Of a DNA stretch of 23,440 nt, positions 2,720 to 22,041 are shown in pieces. The position numbers and the translations under genes are program-made. The notes under the pieces were generated by a model. That model was not told where the DNA came from. It saw only the letters and a program-made list of their open reading frames with translations, and made no database searches. Each line of letters opens with the position of its first letter. The first letter of the stretch is position 1. The stretch lies in IMG/VR virus record IMGVR_UViG_2563366964_000006, one strand, 5' to 3'. The DNA comes from a virus (lineage: Duplodnaviria; Heunggongvirae; Uroviricota; Caudoviricetes).

Positions 2720-3783
2720 AGTAATCCAACCTCCACATTACCGAGTCGAAGCCACTCCACTTTCTCCTCATTGACGACCGGGAAGATATTGGCTGCAGGC
2801 GCGATAAATTCGCGGTCAGTAATTCCTGGAATCAGTGATATCAGTGTCCCGGCCTGGCTACGGATAAACGGCACGGCAGGGTCACGGCGACTGTCGTCAT
2901 CCTGAAGAGAAGCGATAATTTGCGTAGTAGCATCGGCTAGTGTCAGACCATCCAGAGATACCTGGACTGAAACGTCAAAATTGACAATGGTCGGGGCAAT
3001 AACCAGGGCGTTCTTAGCCGTCACCGGGCGTACGTCATCAATATGAGCCTGAGTACGATCAATAACATCCTGAGACGGCAGACCACCGGCAGAGGTGATC
3101 ACAATATCAACGGTGCCAAGACCCCGACGCAGAGGATAGACATACGCAGCTGATACACCTGCAACTTCAAGGGCCCAGCGCTTATAGTCATATTTATTGC
3201 CGCCTGCAGGCGGTCGGCGAATAACATCGAGTAAACGGGCCAGTAACTCAGCATCAGTCTCTTCGTCAGTGCCACCAGACATCATCCCGACGGTCACCGT
3301 ACTGTCGAGGCCCGATGGCGTCGTGCTGAGAATGGCAGTGGTGGTTGAGGTTGTATTACCGGCGGTGCCTTTTGCCGACGAGACAGCATTAACAGTGCCT
3401 TTGCCATCGGCTCCGATGGTCAGTTCCGCTGTTGTTGTCCATGCCTGGCTGTCACGCTTAAAAACTAACCCTGCTGCTGCTGTCGTGTTGGGCTGTCCGG
3501 TAAAGGTGGCAGGACCAGAAGCGCTGTTAGCGGGTTTCTTGGTAAGCCCTCGGGTTCTCGCGTGAAGGTAGAGATACTCAGCATCAGCGGTATCCGGGAA
3601 AATCTGACGAACAATCCAGCCCTGATGCTGGTAAAGCCCCTCGGCAACACTTGCAACACTGGAGGCGCGAACGAACCAGTCGCTGTCTTCACCCAGTTTA
3701 TCGTCAGTCAGTTGCAGCTGGTTTTTAATATCACGCAACAGCTCATCGCGGATTTGTGCTGTTGTTTTAGTAACGAAGGGCAT
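2716..3783 (-). CDS. Baseplate J-like protein (Mu gp47-like)
   Basis: 355 aa; typical size and N-terminal character of Baseplate_J proteins; synteny. Confidence 0.75.
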   Translation of the reverse strand: MPFVTKTTAQIRDELLRDIKNQLQLTDDKLGEDSDWFVRASSVASVAEGLYQHQGWIVRQIFPDTADAEYLYLHARTRGLTKKPANSASGPATFTGQPNTTAAAGLVFKRDSQAWTTTAELTIGADGKGTVNAVSSAKGTAGNTTSTTTAILSTTPSGLDSTVTVGMMSGGTDEETDAELLARLLDVIRRPPAGGNKYDYKRWALEVAGVSAAYVYPLRRGLGTVDIVITSAGGLPSQDVIDRTQAHIDDVRPVTAKNALVIAPTIVNFDVSVQVSLDGLTLADATTQIIASLQDDDSRRDPAVPFIRSQAGTLISLIPGITDREFIAPAANIFPVVNEEKVEWLRLGNVEVGLL

Positions 3784-4133
3784 CAGCTCACCTTAACCGG
3801 ATATTTCCAGGTCTGCGGTGAAACACCGGCAGACGTAACAGTGATAAGCAGCAGGAGCCAGCCTGGCTGATAGCGTTCTGCCGTTATATCAATGGATATG
3901 GCCCTGCCATCGTCCAGCATAGGCTGAAGCGCCTGCTCTGCGTACTGGCGGGCGAGTTTACGCACGCGAGGCGTATCTTTTTCCCGCTGTAGCGTGTGCA
4001 AAAGTGACCCCAGTGATGGTGCCGCCCACCATGAGCCAAGCGGCGTCATTAACCGTAAATAAACGGCATTGGCCAGGGAGTCAGTGCTGTCACCGGTATA
4101 GTCGCCGGTGACTGGGTCAATTAGCATTTCCAT
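3783..4133 (-). CDS. Mu gp46-like baseplate protein
   Basis: 116 aa; first gene after the 4134-4227 intergenic gap; stop overlaps the J-like start; synteny with Mu-like baseplate modules. Confidence 0.6.
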   Translation of the reverse strand: MEMLIDPVTGDYTGDSTDSLANAVYLRLMTPLGSWWAAPSLGSLLHTLQREKDTPRVRKLARQYAEQALQPMLDDGRAISIDITAERYQPGWLLLLITVTSAGVSPQTWKYPVKVS

Positions 4134-4163
4134 GCCGACATAGTATCGGCAATGGAAATAATG

Positions 4164-4191
4164 TAAGAGTTGAAGGGGTTCAGTGGGTTAA
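4164..4191 (-). promoter_or_regulatory. Conserved motif (minus strand TTAACCCACTGAACCCCTTCAACTCTTA), candidate late-promoter / activator-binding element
   Basis: 17-bp core GTTGAAGGGGTTCAGTG (plus 4169-4185) is identical to 15957-15973; contains a TGAA-N4-TTCA dyad; ends 35 nt upstream of the ATG at 4133; lies in the only intergenic gap of the tail/baseplate gene block. Confidence 0.4.
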
Positions 4192-4227
4192 TTAGTTTCA
4201 GAAAGGTAAACAGGAAAATACCACAAA

Positions 4228-4815
4228 TTACATCAGCTGATTAGGTTTATCCGTAGTTCCTGCATCGCCACCATGCTCGTGGTCATGGTCGTCATAAGTT
4301 TCACGTACCTTATTGAGCGTGGATGTACCGTCAGCAAGGTCATTCGTTGCTTTCAGAAGCGGTGTATCGAAGTTTGCTTTATTTGTCGCGTTGACATCAT
4401 AGTCGGCGGTATTAACTGAATATTTATTTTTGGCATTCACGATAAAATCATCGCAATTAGCCTCAATAATTTTCCCGCGTTTAAGAACAATATTGCAGCC
4501 TTCATCCGTATACAGTGCAACTTCTCCCGGTTTCAGTTCTTTCAGACGATAGCGGCCATGCTCCGTCGCAATAACAATACCGTGGCTGGTTTTACCGTTA
4601 ATTGGTAACACGACCGCCATCGTGCCAGGTAGCGGATTAGAGGTGAAACCATAATGCTGAAAGAGTTCTATATCCTGTAACGGTTCAGGGCCAAGCCCCT
4701 TGCCCTGAATAGTCTGCGCAGGCCCCGCGCTGTTAACGCGAGTTATTACGCCTCTGAATGCGTTTCTGATACGGTTTAAAGCCATATTAATCCGCTGATC
4801 CACTTTATTCCACAT
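4228..4815 (-). CDS. Baseplate assembly protein V-like / spike (Mu gp45-like); start revised to the ATG at 4815
   Basis: Track ORF 4228..4947 overlaps the upstream gene by 143 nt; internal ATG at 4815 has GGAGA 7 nt upstream and begins MWNKVDQRINMALNRIRNAFRGV, typical of gpV-type proteins. Confidence 0.65.
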   Translation of the reverse strand: MWNKVDQRINMALNRIRNAFRGVITRVNSAGPAQTIQGKGLGPEPLQDIELFQHYGFTSNPLPGTMAVVLPINGKTSHGIVIATEHGRYRLKELKPGEVALYTDEGCNIVLKRGKIIEANCDDFIVNAKNKYSVNTADYDVNATNKANFDTPLLKATNDLADGTSTLNKVRETYDDHDHEHGGDAGTTDKPNQLM

Positions 4816-6010
4816 CAATAATCTCCAGCTTTTTATTAACCTTAGCGCGGCTTTTACGCAGTTTGCGTTTTTTAGGATAAGCATCGGGTATCCAGATACC
4901 ATCCTCTTTAAGCCTGAGCGTGGTGACGGTGTTATCGGGGCGGCCACCGCTAAATTCCCGGCCCATCAGAAAGAAAATATCGTCGATACCATGGGGCTCG
5001 CTGCGTACACGAATACGCTGACCTGGAGCCCAGAGCTTGCCGCTCTCCATGCGATGACCTTTCACTACAGCGGTTAACTCATAACCACTGAGCCGGGCAT
5101 CTGCCATGGCTTTTTTAGCCCGATAGTCAACCTGCGCCTGGTTATCAGCATCACCCACAACCATGATTTGAGGTCTGTAAAAGGAGACACTCGGGTCACG
5201 AACGACACTGCGGAGACCATGGAAACCACTCTCGGGGGAACCAACCGTCGTCAACAGGTCATTGTCACTGTCGTCGTCACCATCATCACTGTAAACATCG
5301 ATAATCTCAGTCCCTGAGGAAGACTTAGAACCCTGAGCGTGTCCCTGAGCCAGTACGGTCAGTTCGGAAAAAGAGCCATTCACAGATGAGCGATCGCTGA
5401 GGTCGAGAATATTATTCCCACGGCCATCACGGTTAAGCACCAGAGTAGCCACCGGGTCGGCCGTGTAATCCGGACCACCGATAACCAGCGTGCCGTCAGG
5501 CTCAAACCATGGCCAGAGCCCTCTGGCGGCAGCGGCGCGTTCCAGAGTGTCCCAGGCTCGCTCCCCTGGCTCAACGCTGACTTTATCGCTCTGCATCGAC
5601 GACTCAGCCTGCAGACGGATATTTCGTACCCCGAGCGGCCTGACCACCTGAGCGATAACTTCTTCCAGGCTCAGTTGACGGGAGGTGAATACGGGAGATG
5701 CGCAATCCACAAGGACGGCAGAACCATCGCGGCCAGAAATCCCCAGAGATACCTGCTGGCGTGATACGCGACGTTGAATAGTATCCACACGACCGGACAT
5801 CACTACGTCATCCCCTACGCGAACCAGCACAGGCACGCCCCGCGCAATTGAGGCCGGGAATACGCCATCAGGTAGCCCCATCGTCACACTCCAGGCGTCA
5901 GCGGGCACCAGAAAATCAGAATCAATCTGATAACGACTCCAGGAACTGTGGACTTTGCCATCAATAATCAGGCTCACCTTGTCCTGCGAGCTTTTATCTT
6001 GAGTAGGCAT
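4805..6010 (-). CDS. Baseplate hub protein (Mu P / gp44-like)
   Basis: 401 aa; size and position downstream of the DNA-circularisation gene; synteny. Confidence 0.75.
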   Translation of the reverse strand: MPTQDKSSQDKVSLIIDGKVHSSWSRYQIDSDFLVPADAWSVTMGLPDGVFPASIARGVPVLVRVGDDVVMSGRVDTIQRRVSRQQVSLGISGRDGSAVLVDCASPVFTSRQLSLEEVIAQVVRPLGVRNIRLQAESSMQSDKVSVEPGERAWDTLERAAAARGLWPWFEPDGTLVIGGPDYTADPVATLVLNRDGRGNNILDLSDRSSVNGSFSELTVLAQGHAQGSKSSSGTEIIDVYSDDGDDDSDNDLLTTVGSPESGFHGLRSVVRDPSVSFYRPQIMVVGDADNQAQVDYRAKKAMADARLSGYELTAVVKGHRMESGKLWAPGQRIRVRSEPHGIDDIFFLMGREFSGGRPDNTVTTLRLKEDGIWIPDAYPKKRKLRKSRAKVNKKLEIIDVE

Positions 6011-16184: not shown

Positions 16185-16327
16185 TTCCCCCGTTAATCGA
16201 ATGAGCCCCCCGACGATATCGCCAGGGCTTTTTAAACCCCTTTTAAAAACGATTAACAGGGGATGAGGCGAATCACTCTACCACATTTGCGATAAACGCG
16301 TCTGCGTGGCTTACAGCGCCGTTACGC

Positions 16328-16873: not shown

Positions 16874-18123
16874 GGTTTCGGCCTCAGTAATACAGCATCA
16901 TCAGCAATATCCTGTGGACGGATAACATCGCCGCCATTGACGAGTGACAATCGCCAGCCGTCTGCAGCAGGCGCAGCCCGGACCGCGCGAGTCCCCTGGT
17001 CTGCGACCATCGTCCACACTAAATTATCACCATCGAGCCAGACATCCCCGTCACTGGCCAGCAGCGCAGGAAGTTCTGACCACATCGGCCCCGGAGCCTG
17101 ACGGACGTCTGATTCATGGATACTGAGTGTGACCGGCTGGCGAATACCGCGCTCTTCAAGGCGGTCAAGCAAGTCAGGCGAAACCCCGCCGACACGCCTG
17201 AGGTCACCTCTGGTTTTACCCCGAACGCTGACGGCATCCACCCATCGGCGTACATCGTCGCTGACGGAAGATAATACAGCCGGGTCGGAAAGTGTTTCGC
17301 TGATGGCCAGCGCGGCCGTTCTGGGTGGTGCAGTGACGGACTGGTCCATCAGACGCTGCCCCAGAGAAGACAGCCAGCCCTGACCCGGATTGTGACCAAA
17401 GCCCGCATCCGGGGTATAAAGCTCACCGTTAAAGCGCAGCGCCTGAACCTCTCGGGTATCATTGGGCCCCCACGCCTGCTGGACGGTGACGATATCCTGT
17501 TCCCAGGATTTAAGCACAATCCCAAGACGTTCAGCCTCGGCCAGTGAACGTGCCCGGATACGGCAGCGGCAATGATAGCCATCGGGCGGATACATGAACT
17601 GCCAGACCGGATCATCGTAGCGGGCGGTAAAACCGTTCAGTGCCGCGTGTCGCGGTCGGGTACGCAAATCCATGACGGCCACACGTTCCCAGACAGGACG
17701 AAACTCCGCGTTGGCCATCTGCTCTTCATAACGTCCGGCACCATACGCCGCCTGCATGTTGGTTTCGAAGATGGTACGCAGGCGGCGTGGTGTCAGCTGC
17801 TTGCCCTCCAGCACACCATCCTCATCTGCGATTAAGCGTGCTTTATCGGCCAGCCAGCCTTTACGAATCAGGGTTGGCGTCAGCTGGCGTTCGAAGTCAC
17901 GCAGCGTGCCGCCATTCTCCAGATGAGCCTGCAGAGCGCCGTGAATATCGGTCAGAATATCCTGCTTAAGAACGCCTGCGACCGTGAATTCAGTGGCATG
18001 GGTGCGGGCTTCAACATCGTGCCAGTTAAAGCCTATGACGTAGCCCTTAGACTCAAAATAGCGGATGGCTTCTTCCGGCTTCAGACCAATGGCATACCCG
18101 AGATCAACATCAGCTTTCGGCAT
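16870..18123 (-). CDS. Head morphogenesis protein, Mu F-like; start placed at the ATG at 18123
   Basis: Track ORF 16870..18144 starts at GTG and overlaps the portal gene by 35 nt; the ATG at 18123 (MPKADVDLGY...) has a G-rich Shine-Dalgarno-like run upstream. Confidence 0.8.
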   Translation of the reverse strand: MPKADVDLGYAIGLKPEEAIRYFESKGYVIGFNWHDVEARTHATEFTVAGVLKQDILTDIHGALQAHLENGGTLRDFERQLTPTLIRKGWLADKARLIADEDGVLEGKQLTPRRLRTIFETNMQAAYGAGRYEEQMANAEFRPVWERVAVMDLRTRPRHAALNGFTARYDDPVWQFMYPPDGYHCRCRIRARSLAEAERLGIVLKSWEQDIVTVQQAWGPNDTREVQALRFNGELYTPDAGFGHNPGQGWLSSLGQRLMDQSVTAPPRTAALAISETLSDPAVLSSVSDDVRRWVDAVSVRGKTRGDLRRVGGVSPDLLDRLEERGIRQPVTLSIHESDVRQAPGPMWSELPALLASDGDVWLDGDNLVWTMVADQGTRAVRAAPAADGWRLSLVNGGDVIRPQDIADDAVLLRPKP

Positions 18124-19690
18124 TGAGTCGCCCCCAGACCTCACTCACGAACAATGCCTGGTGCAGCAGCTGCCGGAGCATCGAATCATCGAGCTGTGGA
18201 TAGCTGGCGGCGATAATGTCCATCGCCTCATCAGGCGTCTGGCCTTGTTGCAGCGCAGCCACTAATGGGGTGATCAGCTTTTCCATCGCCAGGTTAATGG
18301 CGGCACCTGGCTGAAGGGAGTTATCCAGCGCCTCCTGTGCAGGGTCAGTAATCTCACCGGTACTGCTCAGCGCAGTAAAATGACGGAACGGAGAAGCCGC
18401 TGCCTGAGTCGTCAGTGCCTGTAACGAAAGCGGCGAGGCCGGAGGCGTCAACACGGCTTCATTGTCTTTCGGTTCCGGGATACCAATCTTTTTATGCACC
18501 CAACTGACCGGGATAGTCTTCATCCCCGCACCAACCAGCTTTGATACGCCCTCGGCGAAGACCTGGATATTTTCCAGCTCGCGGGTATCAAAGACCAGTC
18601 TGGGCTGGCGGCGTGGGCTGACATCGTACCCGTTAATCGCCAGTAACATGCGAATAACTCCCCGATAAAAGCCCTCTATCTGGCGAGCATCAGCGGTCAA
18701 CAGGTCATGGCGGACCTCATTGTGTACAACGCCCAGCGCGTTGGTTGAGGACTTACCGTCCGCCTGGGAAGTCAGCGTGCCACCGAGGATAACTTTTGAT
18801 TCAGTGCGCTCAGCCCAGCTAATCATGGCCATAAAGGGATCAGACTGGCCGTTCGCCGCTTCCTTAAACTCAATTTTGGCCCCTTCGGGAATAATACCAG
18901 AGGCATTATGGCCAAGCGTGACAAGCGCCTCCATCAGCTTGTCCTGCTCGTCCTGCGTGGCCCCGGCGATATAAGTACCGATACGCGCGGGCAGACCGTA
19001 TATCTCCAGGAACTCGGCCAGGTCACGTACGCTGTAGTTTTTGAAGAGGTACGGCCAGACCAGCACGCGGTACAGGCCGGACTGGGCGATATAGCCAGAT
19101 TTAGCATTGTGCGTATGGACCAGCCAGCCGAACGGCCACAGTTCTTCGCCGTCCATCGACCCATTATTCAGCCGGATTTCATCACCTTTATCCGGGGTGG
19201 TGCAGAACCAGCGATGCGGGCGTAACTTGATTCGGGTAGGCAACCACAGATTCCCGTCTCGCTCCCACTTCTCAATCTCCTGAGCGGAAAAACCGTGGCC
19301 AATCGCCTCGGCCGCATTGAGAGTGATATCTTCCATTTCCTGCAGGTCAGCAAACCAGCTCGCCACCATTGCCGCCAGTTGCTTCTCTTCGGCGGTGGCG
19401 TTCGGCGGCGGTTCGATACTCCAGTCCAGCGTCAGCAACGCATTCTTGCGTTTGGCCATCTCAGAGAAAATATGGCCGTCCCGCTCAACCATATCTTCGA
19501 AGAGGTCTGCCTGGGCGGAAATATCGCCGCGCTCAGCCGCCTCCAGGATACGAGGCAAACGGGCGATCGTCATTCCGCGTGAGGGATGCGTCGGCCAGTC
19601 CCGGTTCAGCTGCACGGTGCGTGCGGTCTGAGGGGCTTTCAGCACGTCTTTGTTGAGCGGGCGACCATACTGGTCAAGGATTTGAACCAT
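18110..19690 (-). CDS. Portal protein (Mu H-like, DUF935-type)
   Basis: 526 aa; ATG at 19690 with GGAGG upstream, 3 nt after the large terminase stop; canonical terminase-portal-F order. Confidence 0.85.
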   Translation of the reverse strand: MVQILDQYGRPLNKDVLKAPQTARTVQLNRDWPTHPSRGMTIARLPRILEAAERGDISAQADLFEDMVERDGHIFSEMAKRKNALLTLDWSIEPPPNATAEEKQLAAMVASWFADLQEMEDITLNAAEAIGHGFSAQEIEKWERDGNLWLPTRIKLRPHRWFCTTPDKGDEIRLNNGSMDGEELWPFGWLVHTHNAKSGYIAQSGLYRVLVWPYLFKNYSVRDLAEFLEIYGLPARIGTYIAGATQDEQDKLMEALVTLGHNASGIIPEGAKIEFKEAANGQSDPFMAMISWAERTESKVILGGTLTSQADGKSSTNALGVVHNEVRHDLLTADARQIEGFYRGVIRMLLAINGYDVSPRRQPRLVFDTRELENIQVFAEGVSKLVGAGMKTIPVSWVHKKIGIPEPKDNEAVLTPPASPLSLQALTTQAAASPFRHFTALSSTGEITDPAQEALDNSLQPGAAINLAMEKLITPLVAALQQGQTPDEAMDIIAASYPQLDDSMLRQLLHQALFVSEVWGRLNAES

Positions 19691-19693
19691 TTA

Positions 19694-21340
19694 TTACCAT
19701 CCTCCGGATGAGCCGAACCGATCGCCGCTGCGGCGCGGTGCCGGTTTAAAATCAAAGTTACCCGCGCCAGACACTGCCAGCGCCCATAGCATGTGCAGGG
19801 CATCAGGCCCGTCATCATGGTCTGCTTTCGGGAAGTGCCGGAGCTGGTCAATCAGCGTGGTTTGGGTGGGGTGAAGACGGATGAGGCCATTGGCCATATG
19901 CGGCTGCAGGGATTCGATACGCAGCAATTTATCTGCACTGGGGGTGACGGCGCGGGCCGGAACCGGCACCCCGGCCATGGCCGAGCGTTTCACCAGTTCG
20001 GTACGCAGAAACTCCTGGAACTGAACGGACTCAACCGCCCAGATGAGACAGTTGTACTCGCGCTGCAGCTCGATCACATCGGAAATGATGCGGTCGGGTA
20101 CGCGCTTGCGGATGCGGGCTTCAACAACGTCCAGAATACCGGTGAAGCGATTAAAGCCACCAACCAGCAGCGCGGAGGGGTCACGACTGTTACCGGCCTT
20201 ACCCAGACTCGGGTCGCAGGCACCATAAAAGCGCCATTCCGCCAGACGGTTCACCCAGAAGTTGATACAGCCATTGAACGGAGCATCTTCGCCGTTAACC
20301 GGGTCATTCTGGTATTCGGCATCGAAAGTGCCGTGGCCATCACGCGCACGAATCAGCATCAGCGTATAAAGCGGGCGGGCGTCCCACGAAACAACGGCAC
20401 CGGCATCCATTTCGGCCCGGTGCTGCTGATAGAATGCCTGTGCCAGCATCTCGCCATCTTCATCATTGTTGCGAAGGATCTCTTCCCAGCGGTCCCACAA
20501 ATCCATATTGTGCGGCCAGCTGATGAGCGCTTTAAAGCGGGCTCGTTTCCACAGTGGATTCTTCAGCGTGCGGGATAGGACCGAATCATGATGCAGAATG
20601 GTGCCGATATAAACGACATCAAATTTGGCACCGGCTCCCCCCAACGGCAGAACGGTTTTCTTGAGCCAGTTATCAAGTTTGTCGCGCTGTTCGGGGTTTC
20701 GTACCTGTTCGTCGTTCTCAATATCATCGAGTACAGCAAGGTCAGGACGATATGGGCCATGCCGCAGGCCACGCAGCTTTTTACCACTACCGGCGACCTG
20801 AACCTTAATATCGTTACGCGTGAGGATAGTCCCTGCCTGCCAGACGCGGCCGCCGCCCGTCGCCTCCGGGAAGTCCATCAGCAGACGCGGGTTGAACTGC
20901 AGCTCTGCTTTGATAGCTTCCAGCATCGGGTATGCCTGGTCTATCGAGTCCATAATGATGACCGGGTAATGTTTGAGCGCCAGAACGATGCACCAGATAA
21001 CAAACAGCTGGCTCACGATGGTGGACTTGGCTTCGCCGCGAGGTGCTGCGATGGCGTCGTTCTGCCCGGTTGTCGCCTGGATAAGTTCCGGAAGGCGGGA
21101 ATAAAGGTATTTATGCAGCTCGCTTTTCGCTGTATGACGCACGTAATGCGGGAAGTAGTTCTGCACGAAATACTCAAATCCCGTGGAGGGGTCAGCCACA
21201 CAGGCACGCCGAACCTCAATCGCCGAGGGTTTAGGATCAAAGCCAACATCTTCGGCCTCGATGGTCCGACGTAGGCTAGCCCCCAGCTCGGCGAGCTCGG
21301 CGAGGAAATCTTTGCTGGAAAGCTTTTTACCACTGGCCAC
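19694..21340 (-). CDS. Terminase large subunit (Mu gp28-like)
   Basis: 548 aa; size, position upstream of portal. Annotated start is GTG at 21340 with no Shine-Dalgarno, overlapping the upstream small ORF by 14 nt, so the exact start is uncertain. Confidence 0.85.
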   Translation of the reverse strand: MASGKKLSSKDFLAELAELGASLRRTIEAEDVGFDPKPSAIEVRRACVADPSTGFEYFVQNYFPHYVRHTAKSELHKYLYSRLPELIQATTGQNDAIAAPRGEAKSTIVSQLFVIWCIVLALKHYPVIIMDSIDQAYPMLEAIKAELQFNPRLLMDFPEATGGGRVWQAGTILTRNDIKVQVAGSGKKLRGLRHGPYRPDLAVLDDIENDEQVRNPEQRDKLDNWLKKTVLPLGGAGAKFDVVYIGTILHHDSVLSRTLKNPLWKRARFKALISWPHNMDLWDRWEEILRNNDEDGEMLAQAFYQQHRAEMDAGAVVSWDARPLYTLMLIRARDGHGTFDAEYQNDPVNGEDAPFNGCINFWVNRLAEWRFYGACDPSLGKAGNSRDPSALLVGGFNRFTGILDVVEARIRKRVPDRIISDVIELQREYNCLIWAVESVQFQEFLRTELVKRSAMAGVPVPARAVTPSADKLLRIESLQPHMANGLIRLHPTQTTLIDQLRHFPKADHDDGPDALHMLWALAVSGAGNFDFKPAPRRSGDRFGSSGGW

Positions 21341-21542
21341 AGGAGGAAACCCCGGTTAAAGCGGCATTAACTGCCTTTTCAAAGCTCTCTTTTGTACGGT
21401 AACAATCCCCCATAAAGGACAGTTCATGGTGTTCACCGTCGATGGTTGTGACAAAGCAGTAGCCTGATGCGATGTAAACTGAGGCCACTGTGCTGGCCAT
21501 GACACTCACTTTTTCGTTAACGCGAATCAATTTATCAGCCAT
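21327..21542 (-). CDS. Small hypothetical protein (71 aa) between the terminase subunit genes
   Basis: ATG at 21542 preceded by GGAGAAAC and overlapping the small-terminase stop (TATGGCTGA); protein MADKLIRVNEKVS...SSCGQW; 3' end overlaps the large terminase start. Confidence 0.45.
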   Translation of the reverse strand: MADKLIRVNEKVSVMASTVASVYIASGYCFVTTIDGEHHELSFMGDCYRTKESFEKAVNAALTGVSSCGQW

Positions 21543-22041
21543 AGTGTTTCTCCATCTCGCCCCCGAAGGGCTCCAGAATCTCGACGAACGCCGCCAGGTG
21601 CTGCGGGTATTGTTCAGAGACAAAGAGGCTCAGTTTCTGGATCACATCCAGAGCAACAGCGAGCTGACTGACCTCCGGTAGTATCTTCTTGTTCGCTGCT
21701 ACCGCCTTGTTGAAGGCATCCGCCAGACTGGACAGCAGTTCTACCCGCTTGTCTGGTGGCAAATCAGCATCGGTTGTCAGCAGTTCCAGCGTCACCTGAT
21801 ACTGGGTCATCAGTCCGGTAAGAATGGCGCGGCCAATATCCTCAAGACCGTTGCCAGCCATGATGTGCGCTGCCCTGAGCTTGTCCCAGTCATCACCAGC
21901 ATCCTGAGCTTCTTTCTTCCAGCGTCTGGCGGTAGCAAAGGCAACTCCCGCCTGAGCTGACGCAATCTCCAGTGACATCTGGCCAAAGATGTATGATCGT
22001 CGCAGTCTGTCCCGTGTTTCCTGCGGATGGGCCATACTCAT
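21535..22041 (-). CDS. Terminase small subunit-like DNA-binding protein (Mu gp27-like, DUF1804-type)
   Basis: 168 aa with N-terminal helix-turn-helix-like segment (LEIASAQAGVAFATARRW); position just upstream of the large terminase. Confidence 0.55.
   Translation of the reverse strand: MSMAHPQETRDRLRRSYIFGQMSLEIASAQAGVAFATARRWKKEAQDAGDDWDKLRAAHIMAGNGLEDIGRAILTGLMTQYQVTLELLTTDADLPPDKRVELLSSLADAFNKAVAANKKILPEVSQLAVALDVIQKLSLFVSEQYPQHLAAFVEILEPFGGEMEKHYG

Follow-up and report, generated by a model that had tools for sequence, protein, structure and literature searches.

A conserved small-protein gene in a variable slot between the DUF1804 and large terminase genes of Enterobacterales Mu-like prophages

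The window, by which we mean the whole 23,440-nucleotide stretch of the IMG/VR virus record IMGVR_UViG_2563366964_000006, carries a small gene on its minus strand between a gene of the DUF1804 family and the gene of the large terminase, TerL (Table 1). The 71-aa product reads MADKLIRVNEKVS...SSCGQW, from an ATG at 21542-21540 to a TAA at 21329-21327, and is made up of a conserved domain (residues 1-64) and a lineage-specific read-through tail (residues 66-71, SSCGQW). The ATG is embedded in the end of the 168-aa gene upstream (...CAC TAT GGC TGA) and has a GGAG before it, so the ORF, its overlap with the upstream stop and its Shine-Dalgarno (SD) sequence lie where the original prediction had placed them. 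The same overlap with DUF1804 is common to 22 of 33 related loci, and in relatives with a spacer in its place the same ATG follows GGAGG or AAGGG. An upstream TTG start at 21623, which would give 98 aa, was rejected because MADK is the start of every homologue, even of those that are 60-574 nt away from DUF1804 and carry an SD of their own. No promoter-like or terminator-like sites were found on the coding strand between 20900 and 22400.

Table 1. Genes and sequence features at the junction of DUF1804 and TerL (positions in the window).
Feature	Position	Strand	Evidence or remark
Large terminase gene TerL, 548 aa, GTG start 21340	19694..21340	minus	phrog_38, E 6e-136; TIGR01630
71-aa gene, MADKLIRVN...VNDAL family (phrog_19649)	21327..21542	minus	ORF, PHROG match, homologues, dN/dS, AlphaFold models
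TCC codon (Ser66) at the position of the relatives' TAA	21345..21347	minus	DNA alignment
Weak SD of TerL, GGGGT	21349..21353	minus	Inside codons 64-65 of the small gene; duplex energy
DUF1804/small-gene overlap ATGGCTGA, 8 nt	21535..21542	minus	Small-gene start 21542-21540 and DUF1804 TGA 21537-21535
DUF1804 gene, 168 aa	21535..22041	minus	PF08822, E 1.5e-58; phrog_756 'DNA binding protein'
SD of the small gene, GGAG	21550..21553	minus	7 nt 5' of the ATG, within the DUF1804 coding sequence

The gene upstream had been taken for the small terminase. It does stand where Mu has its small terminase gene; it is a DUF1804/phrog_756 gene, and none of the tools used identified it as a small terminase. 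A TerL start further upstream, which had been considered as well, is excluded, because an in-frame TAA at 21358-21356 prevents TerL from beginning 5' of the GTG. The TerL N-terminus read from this GTG is conserved in relatives, which have a homologous GTG GCC start there.

The length of the small ORF is not beyond chance, since dozens of ORFs of at least 70 aa occur in this GC-rich window; its significance comes from conservation and dN/dS. Besides 9 close homologues, about 15 clusters (50% identity) of 66-76 aa came out of an exhaustive profile search through 1.84 billion representatives. The family match is to phrog_19649 (PHROGs v4, function unknown) and is full-length, with an E-value of 2.2e-6 over residues 1-61 against profile positions 1-63 of 67. 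Homologues are 65-77 aa long, and wherever a locus was recovered together with the small gene, this gene lies between DUF1804 and TerL; each of the 33 loci recovered through the protein has it on the same strand, 3' of DUF1804 and 5' of TerL. The protein is present in 28 IMG/VR loci, the same gene order is found in records of E. coli, Klebsiella, Enterobacter and Yersinia, and an identical protein occurs on 172 public contigs from Salmonella, Enterobacter, E. coli, Citrobacter and Cronobacter. The expectation that Mu-like prophages conserve an ORF at this position was thus borne out, as the frame is conserved in related prophages. Against close alleles, dN/dS of the small gene is 0.09-0.14. 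The N-terminal 20 codons are highly conserved with saturated synonymous sites (pS 0.65), and because of this saturation the N- and C-terminal conservation lies at the protein level. These values indicate a selected protein and uphold the view that the ORF is translated: it is, by comparative evidence, a genuine small-protein gene of Enterobacterales Mu-like prophages. The chance-ORF explanation, which could point to the many ORFs of similar length, is refuted by a frame, start and position conserved across homologues of 36-100% identity and by a dN/dS far below 1, and we leave it almost no probability.

Databases already hold the small protein as a hypothetical protein. Members of phrog_19649 and of NCBI hypothetical clusters, for example WP_076735016.1, WP_023311731.1 and QBA84966.1 (the last from Klebsiella phage ST405-OXA48phi1.1), belong to the same length class and have the same position after DUF1804. 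Most phrog_19649 members lack the 6-residue read-through tail overlapping TerL, in contrast to the copy in the window. Searches of Pfam (E<=10, 17 family members), NCBIfam, PADLOC and PDB sequence profiles gave no matches to the protein, and Foldseek against BFVD gave only uncharacterised ones. A megablast comparison of the region with the phage collection gave no match, and tblastn picked up one Klebsiella phage. In the literature we found no study of the small gene or of the DUF1804-TerL slot.

The 3' overlap with TerL is present, as had been described, and amounts to 14 nt, but it is not a conserved design. At the relatives' junction the order is GGGGTT TAA GCCT GTG, and the window has TCC replacing the TAA; the small ORF therefore runs 14 nt into TerL because its stop codon was lost. 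The SSCGQW tail produced in this way is not conserved in protein alignments. We regard this overlap, from the DNA alignment, as a lineage-specific stop-codon loss and a recent accident. TerL had also been thought to have no SD of its own. A weak one is present, namely GGGGU (21353-21349), which lies about 7-8 nt before the GTG and whose duplex with the anti-SD has an energy of -5.7 kcal/mol. In this operon most genes have stronger ones (-8 to -11.6), the DUF1804 and G genes equal TerL, and relatives all keep a GGRG motif ahead of the TerL start.

The weak SD, the GTG and the nearby upstream stop fit translational coupling of TerL. The layout is that of coupled pairs, with an 8-nt overlap and GGAG from DUF1804 to the small gene and a 14-nt overlap and GGGGU from the small gene to TerL. 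However, the proposal that TerL is coupled to this ORF in particular holds only in part. TerL is preceded in this same manner by whichever gene is upstream (a 109-aa gene, a 119-aa gene or others), and in E. coli-type relatives a 24-nt spacer separates the small gene from TerL, which starts with ATG. Tight stop/start junctions are general in the operon, where neighbouring junctions overlap by 4 nt. The predicted coupling is thus a property of the junction and not of the small gene. Local RNA folding across the TerL start shows no gain in stability over shuffled sequences (z -0.2 to -0.45). An SD-sequestering hairpin (GGGG/CCUCC) created by the stop loss does appear in the minimum-free-energy structure, but was rejected because this fold does not exceed shuffled sequences in stability. 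A frameshift fusion of the small ORF with TerL is out, since relatives have a stop before the GTG, and no obvious slippery motif was seen on reading the sequence of this junction.

How often the slot is filled was counted in a census of 41 loci that was anchored on DUF1804 and hence is unbiased for the small gene. Twenty loci have it intact, one has it frameshifted and one has a chimera; in six it is replaced or lost, and the remaining 13 are slot-less, with the DUF1804 stop overlapping the TerL ATG. Where DUF1804 identity is at least 64%, the small gene is found in 20 of 26 loci, and its orientation is invariably forward, with no other gene preceding it in the slot. The slot itself holds 0-4 genes of unrelated families, and TerL begins anywhere between -14 and about 1400 nt after the small gene ends. 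Co-resident cargo includes DUF6527, a 119-aa predicted membrane protein, a DUF4145/PD-T7-4-like gene and a DNA methyltransferase. The content is therefore variable between a conserved DUF1804 and a conserved TerL, as in an accessory region. Mu has no such small gene, and in D3112 and LESphi4 (D3112-type, Pseudomonas) it is absent and other cargo stands in its place. It is replaced, truncated or frameshifted in L039, L041, L057, L059 and L061, and in close relatives, whose DUF1804 is 80-92% identical, its place is taken by unrelated ORFs, by a remnant of 6 codons or by a frameshifted copy.

Alleles of the small gene also move between backbones. One locus (L013) shares 99.6% of TerL, 100% of the portal and 96% of DUF1804 with the window, but its small protein is only 52% identical, and alleles of the window type occur in backbones with DUF1804 at 65% and TerL at 75% identity; an allele that is 80-86% identical is flanked by neighbours of 65-77% identity. 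A nearly identical TerL can be paired with an allele of no more than 36-52% identity. The small protein does not co-vary with partner subunits, and its gene does not accompany the terminase genes in every phage that has them. The suggestion of a terminase part consequently fails, given the absence from Mu, D3112-type phages and the 13 slot-less loci and the replacement in close relatives. On this distribution, we conclude that the small gene is not a core terminase part, and that, in a widespread group of Enterobacterales prophages, the DUF1804-TerL junction serves as a cargo site prone to recombination.

A compact fold is confidently predicted and is shared by divergent alleles. In the AlphaFold models five beta-strands are capped by a C-terminal helix, giving a minimal PH/PTB-like shape. 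Modules with a PH/PTB-like fold typically bind peptides or proteins, and the small protein probably binds protein. It has only five strands in about 65 residues, and nearly all of the structural matches are 2-16% identical in sequence; PH/PTB-like domains proper have a seven-stranded beta-sandwich with a C-terminal helix. No PDB chain showed sequence-profile similarity at E<=1. The likeness is generic and may be convergent.

What the protein does was weighed among several explanations. The one we favour, with moderate confidence, is a late-expressed, non-essential accessory protein whose translation would also deliver ribosomes to TerL. A lineage-specific packaging cofactor, which would bind the DUF1804 protein and/or TerL, for example as adaptor, assembly chaperone or terminase regulator, and be needed for efficient headful packaging in this phage group, is a less likely yet serious candidate. 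High prevalence, fixed orientation and first place in the slot fit such a helper as well: the gene is present in most enterobacterial relatives, where a presumed terminase gene always stands on either side of it in the same orientation, with a predicted translational link to both. Its strongly conserved N-terminal strands and C-terminal helix could form a fixed interaction surface, and the binding habits of PH/PTB-like folds speak for such a role too. However, homologous pairs of DUF1804 and TerL work without it in Pseudomonas Mu-like phages and in the slot-less loci, the close relatives described above have lost or replaced it, and it co-varies with neither neighbour, divergent alleles lying beside near-identical TerL. 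A RemA/LytTR-like DNA-binding oligomer that aids recognition of the packaging site is highly improbable. Matches of that kind rank below the PH-like ones and have no profile support among PDB chains, all family members are acidic or neutral (pI 4.7-6.7) where a basic surface would be looked for together with the fold, and the gene is dispensable in relatives.

The idea that the ORF is purely a coupling leader, carrying ribosomes from DUF1804 to the weak TerL GTG while its peptide is functionless, accords with the overlaps at both ends, with the GTG and weak SD of TerL, and with the unrelated small ORFs that use the same embedded ATG in L039, L057 and L058 or overlap the DUF1804 end in L063 and L077. 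We consider it very unlikely, because purifying selection on the amino acids is strong (dN/dS about 0.1) and divergent alleles have a compact predicted fold in common; a leader is also unneeded, since the slot-less clade couples TerL straight to DUF1804. An anti-defence role, in which a small acidic inhibitor or decoy made with the terminase would block an immune sensor, for example one of TerL or the portal, is an improbable reading. The protein is small, acidic and fast-diversifying, and it is exchanged horizontally at one set place with conserved core genes on both sides; these traits match published accessory regions rich in counter-defence genes (bioRxiv 10.1101/2023.04.06.535777). The slot also takes defence-like and methyltransferase cargo. 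Against it, no similarity to known anti-defence families appeared in the libraries searched (the PHROG carries no function and PADLOC gave no match), expression from the late operon is late relative to early-acting defences, and the slot has no associated regulator gene. More speculatively, and with about one chance in ten in our judgement, the junction would be a dedicated counter-defence locus, where the MADKLIRVN family and the unrelated small acidic ORFs replacing it would act as inhibitors or decoys that shield co-translated TerL from host immunity sensing terminase or portal, for example through Avs-type sensors.

Comparison with known systems helps to place the accessory protein that we favour. 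Phage accessory regions are enriched in counter-defence genes (bioRxiv 10.1101/2023.04.06.535777), and the slot resembles them in its conserved borders, zero-to-four-gene content, allele replacement, shuffling, small fast-evolving proteins and defence-like or methyltransferase cargo; unlike typical cargo, the small gene is far more constant and always first. Classical morons have their own promoter and terminator, whereas the small gene has neither and overlaps both neighbours. Coupled late-operon pairs (e.g. ATGA) share the start inside the upstream end, the SD in upstream coding sequence and a downstream weak SD with GTG beside the upstream stop, but the 14-nt overlap with TerL seen here is a recent accident.

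The anti-CRISPR locus of Pseudomonas Mu-like phages reportedly is a fixed slot among head genes, as Bondy-Denomy et al. 2013 are said to have described. The DUF1804 gene of these phages is 54-57% identical, so the phage type is related, and in both cases one fixed place between conserved late genes is filled by a variety of small acidic proteins. However, the slot there is G-protease and not DUF1804-TerL, the small gene has neither an HTH regulator partner nor its own promoter, and the tools used showed no similarity of the small protein to known anti-CRISPR proteins.

We propose the following course. The small gene would be the commonest first occupant of the accessory slot opened at the DUF1804-TerL junction in Enterobacterales Mu-like prophages. 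Ribosomes ending DUF1804 would restart at the ATG within ...TATGGCTGA, aided by GGAG, and make from the late operon a soluble, acidic protein of small size, with a core of about 65 aa. Those ending the small ORF would stop near the weak-SD GTG and thus feed TerL; in the window they would stop 14 nt past this GTG because of the lost stop codon. The protein would act late in infection as a dispensable, fast-diversifying accessory factor, binding perhaps a host or defence component or modulating assembly, and would not be an obligatory subunit of the packaging motor.

The value of these results is mainly for annotation: annotators should retain the small ORF as a real gene, set the TerL start at the GTG 21340, and label the upstream gene as DUF1804 and not as a proven small terminase. 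The variants of the junction (ATGA-type overlap, stop plus 4 nt plus GTG, 14-nt overlap, and 24-nt spacer plus ATG) form a natural series for coupling and terminase dosage. A more useful by-product is the DUF1804-TerL slot itself, as a source of candidate accessory and anti-defence genes.

The small ORF lies at the coordinates originally given and overlaps both of its neighbours as noted there, by 8 nt with the DUF1804 gene upstream, whose 3' end (...CAC TAT GGC TGA) embeds its ATG, and by 14 nt with TerL, the large terminase gene. All genes in this part of the window are coded on the minus strand, and throughout the operon gene junctions overlap or abut as a rule. An earlier TerL start, which would have made the small-ORF region part of the terminase coding sequence, is impossible because of an in-frame TAA upstream of the GTG. 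Downstream of the GTG, the encoded residues (MASGKKLSSKDFLAELAELGASLRR...) can be aligned to the N-termini in relatives, whose genes likewise begin GTG GCC. The remaining window carries the late genes of a Mu-like myovirus (F, G, protease I, major head T, sheath, tape measure, baseplate J). The DUF1804 gene takes the position of the small terminase gene in Mu; since no tool used identified it as such, that label is an assumption. Mu was absent among the 238 phage records matching the DUF1804 protein.

Positions of the features, in the window unless a related IMG/VR locus (L number) is named
Feature	Position	Strand	Description
Small ORF	ATG 21542-21540 to TAA 21329-21327	minus	71 aa; MADKLIRVNEKVSVMASTVASVYIASGYCFVTTIDGEHHELSFMGDCYRTKESFEKAVNAALTGVSSCGQW
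GGAG upstream of small ORF	21553-21550	minus	7 nt 5' of ATG
DUF1804 gene	21535-22041	minus	168 aa; DUF1804 / phrog_756 'DNA binding protein'
TerL	19694-21340	minus	548 aa, GTG start 21340; phrog_38 E 6e-136; TIGR01630
In-frame TAA before TerL GTG	21358-21356
GGGGU before TerL	21353-21349		pairs with anti-SD, -5.7 kcal/mol
TCC where relatives have TAA	21347-21345
Mu-type portal gene	18110-19690		Portal_Mu
Tail-fibre-assembly gene	399-992	plus	Caudo_TAP; convergent with next
Tail-fibre-assembly gene	964-1404	minus	Caudo_TAP
Fibre C-terminal gene	1407-2177	minus	adjoins Caudo_TAP pair
Partial ORF	1-399	plus	adjoins Caudo_TAP pair
Gap, virion-morphogenesis G gene to protease I gene	15921-16327		407 nt
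Slot gene, L022/L024/L026; L061	~4537-5328; 3564-4334	minus	256-263 aa, between DUF1804 and TerL
Slot DNA methyltransferase, L063; L077	3704-4438; 3928-4692		DPPY motif; DUF1804 55-59% identity
Insert ORF, L003; L020	5471-5959; 3472-4011	minus	162-179 aa, in 470-574 nt DUF1804/small-gene insert
Insert ORF, L013, L007	~3540-3975	reverse	90-94 aa, in 470-574 nt DUF1804/small-gene insert
Split small gene, L041	3407-3693		E. coli type, two ORFs, frameshift after codon 11
Chimeric small gene, L058	3494-3688		64 aa
WP_023311731.1-type allele, L036	3752-3958 (cluster)		68 aa

Elsewhere in the window, the layout of positions 1-2177 is like that of the invertible G segment of Mu, a host-range switch. 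The gap between G and protease I holds short ORFs only: a minus-strand one of 69 aa that includes a hydrophobic stretch, and a plus-strand one of 71 aa. In the E. coli relative L036 a hypothetical protein of 77 aa is annotated at this place on the reverse strand, and in Pseudomonas Mu-like phages the anti-CRISPR locus lies here.

Length alone does not prove a gene, as ORFs of at least 70 aa number in the dozens across the window. The suggestion that the small ORF is translated finds decisive support in homology and selection. Its match to phrog_19649 is full-length (E 2.2e-6), nine close homologues (Cronobacter, Enterobacter, Yersinia, metagenomes) came from a word-indexed search, and an exhaustive profile search against 1.84 billion representatives added only about 15 clusters, all of 66-76 aa and none fused to another domain. 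An IMG/VR scan with the protein gave 28 loci; L006 is identical to the window over this region. The exact protein occurs in 172 public contigs (Salmonella, Enterobacter, E. coli, Citrobacter, Cronobacter), each time under the name 'hypothetical protein'; Klebsiella, the Enterobacter cloacae complex and Pectobacterium commonly carry other alleles. Alleles of the WP_023311731.1 type are named 'lipoate-protein ligase A' in some public records, evidently an annotation error propagated across several sources. Against four close alleles (77-86% identity), dN/dS was 0.09-0.14 at dS of about 1. With all alleles included, codons 1-20 gave a pS of 0.65 against a pN of 0.17, and thus the conservation of MADKLIRVN.KVSVMAS.V acts on the protein and not on the RNA. 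Homologues all begin MADK or MADR, and where a spacer follows DUF1804 the same ATG has a GGAGG or AAGGG of its own; at the level of sequence comparison, this confirms the start. Together, these results show that the small ORF is a protein-coding gene under selection, from a narrow family found in Enterobacterales prophages.

The position is conserved in Mu-like prophages, with the order DUF1804, small gene, TerL in 33/33 loci found by way of the small protein. The 8-nt ATGGCTGA overlap with DUF1804 is common to 22 of them, and the others have inserts of 60-574 nt, in which a 90-179-aa ORF on the reverse strand is frequent. TerL starts at -14 to +4 nt from the small-gene stop in 16 loci; the remaining loci have 335-1400 nt of additional genes in between, among them those for a 109-aa DUF6527 protein and a predicted membrane protein of 119 aa, and a DUF4145 / PD-T7-4-like gene on the reverse strand. 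Whichever gene precedes, the TerL junction keeps one design: GGRG, upstream stop, 0-4 nt, GTG (some ATG). Relatives read ...GGG GTT TAA GCCT GTG GNC AGT GG at the small-gene end and the window ...GGG GTT TCC TCC T GTG GCC AGT GG, where read-through to the next in-frame stop adds SSCGQW, a tail in no other subtype. The 3' overlap is a recent accident. TerL does not lack a Shine-Dalgarno sequence, as had been claimed; its GGGGU is weaker than that of most operon genes (-8 to -11.6 kcal/mol) and equal to those of DUF1804 and G. The new CCUCC of the window can pair with the TerL GGGG in the predicted MFE structure, but the fold is no stabler than shuffled sequences (z -0.2 to -0.45), so we put no weight on it.

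A second scan was anchored on the DUF1804 protein and hence unbiased for the small gene. Among its 41 loci the small gene was intact in 20, frameshifted in one (L041, a pseudogene or else an assembly error) and chimeric in one. In the latter, L058, the N-terminus of an unrelated MDKYD... family (L057, L059) is joined to the C-terminal helix of the MADKLI family (...RLINEINKALE), which indicates recombination inside the gene. It was replaced or lost in six: by an unrelated 72-aa ORF that starts at the identical embedded ATG, together with a reverse gene of 171 aa (L039), an unrelated 83-aa ORF (L057, L059), a 6-codon remnant plus DUF4145-like cargo (L061), or a small helical ORF, overlapping the DUF1804 end, before the methyltransferase (L063, L077). 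The other 13 have no slot, the DUF1804 TGA overlapping the TerL ATG (GGCATGAAG), with DUF1804 57-58% and TerL 62-69% identical. In Mu the small and large terminase genes lie 7 nt apart with nothing between. Pseudomonas D3112 and LESphi4 have DUF1804 proteins about 54% identical; the slot holds orf25, on the reverse strand, in D3112 and a NinC-like gene in LESphi4. The insert ORFs of L003, L020, L013 and L007 share with orf25 a reverse orientation in this slot; those scanned had no Pfam or PADLOC match. In the L022 copy of the longer reverse-strand gene, a DUF4145 domain and a weak similarity to the PD-T7-4 defence family make prophage-borne defence cargo likely.

Compared with the window, L013 has TerL 99.6%, portal 100% and DUF1804 96% identical, but the small protein only 52%, nucleotide similarity vanishing across the gene's central part. 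Backbones with DUF1804 only 65% and TerL only 75% identical carry window-type alleles as well. Judged by these identities, the alleles do not follow their neighbours. No promoter-like or terminator-like site was found on the coding strand. These data show that the small gene heads a variable cargo slot and that, in relatives, the DUF1804/TerL module can do without it.

AlphaFold2 models of two alleles, built from a 17-sequence alignment, had a mean pLDDT of 71 and pTM of 0.50 for the window allele, and 88 and 0.73 for the Klebsiella-type allele (P0014). Both are predicted to form five short strands and then a 17-residue C-terminal helix. Foldseek against BFVD gave no significant match, and any likeness of the modelled fold is one of shape only, with no family assignment. 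Every family member has an acidic or neutral pI (4.7-6.7, median 5.3) and lacks a hydrophobic segment, which speaks against binding to DNA and favours a soluble protein-binding module; a RemA-like DNA binder is very improbable. With the selection on the protein, a chance ORF or a pure coupling leader is each given as little credit. The likeliest reading, somewhat more probable than not, is that the small protein is a non-essential accessory factor that would act by binding a protein partner late in infection. A lineage-specific packaging cofactor seems unlikely, and an anti-defence protein more unlikely still. Slightly less credible again is the slot as a counter-defence locus that shields the terminase from immune sensing.

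PHROGs and RefSeq already list the small gene, as a hypothetical protein, and its expression mode and accessory-slot behaviour are ordinary among phage late operons. We found no paper on the gene or its slot; published phage accessory regions describe the slot well (bioRxiv 10.1101/2023.04.06.535777). The small gene would be expressed by ribosomes restarting at the DUF1804 stop, and its termination beside the weak-SD GTG may add ribosomes to TerL. Any gene set at this place would feed TerL equally.
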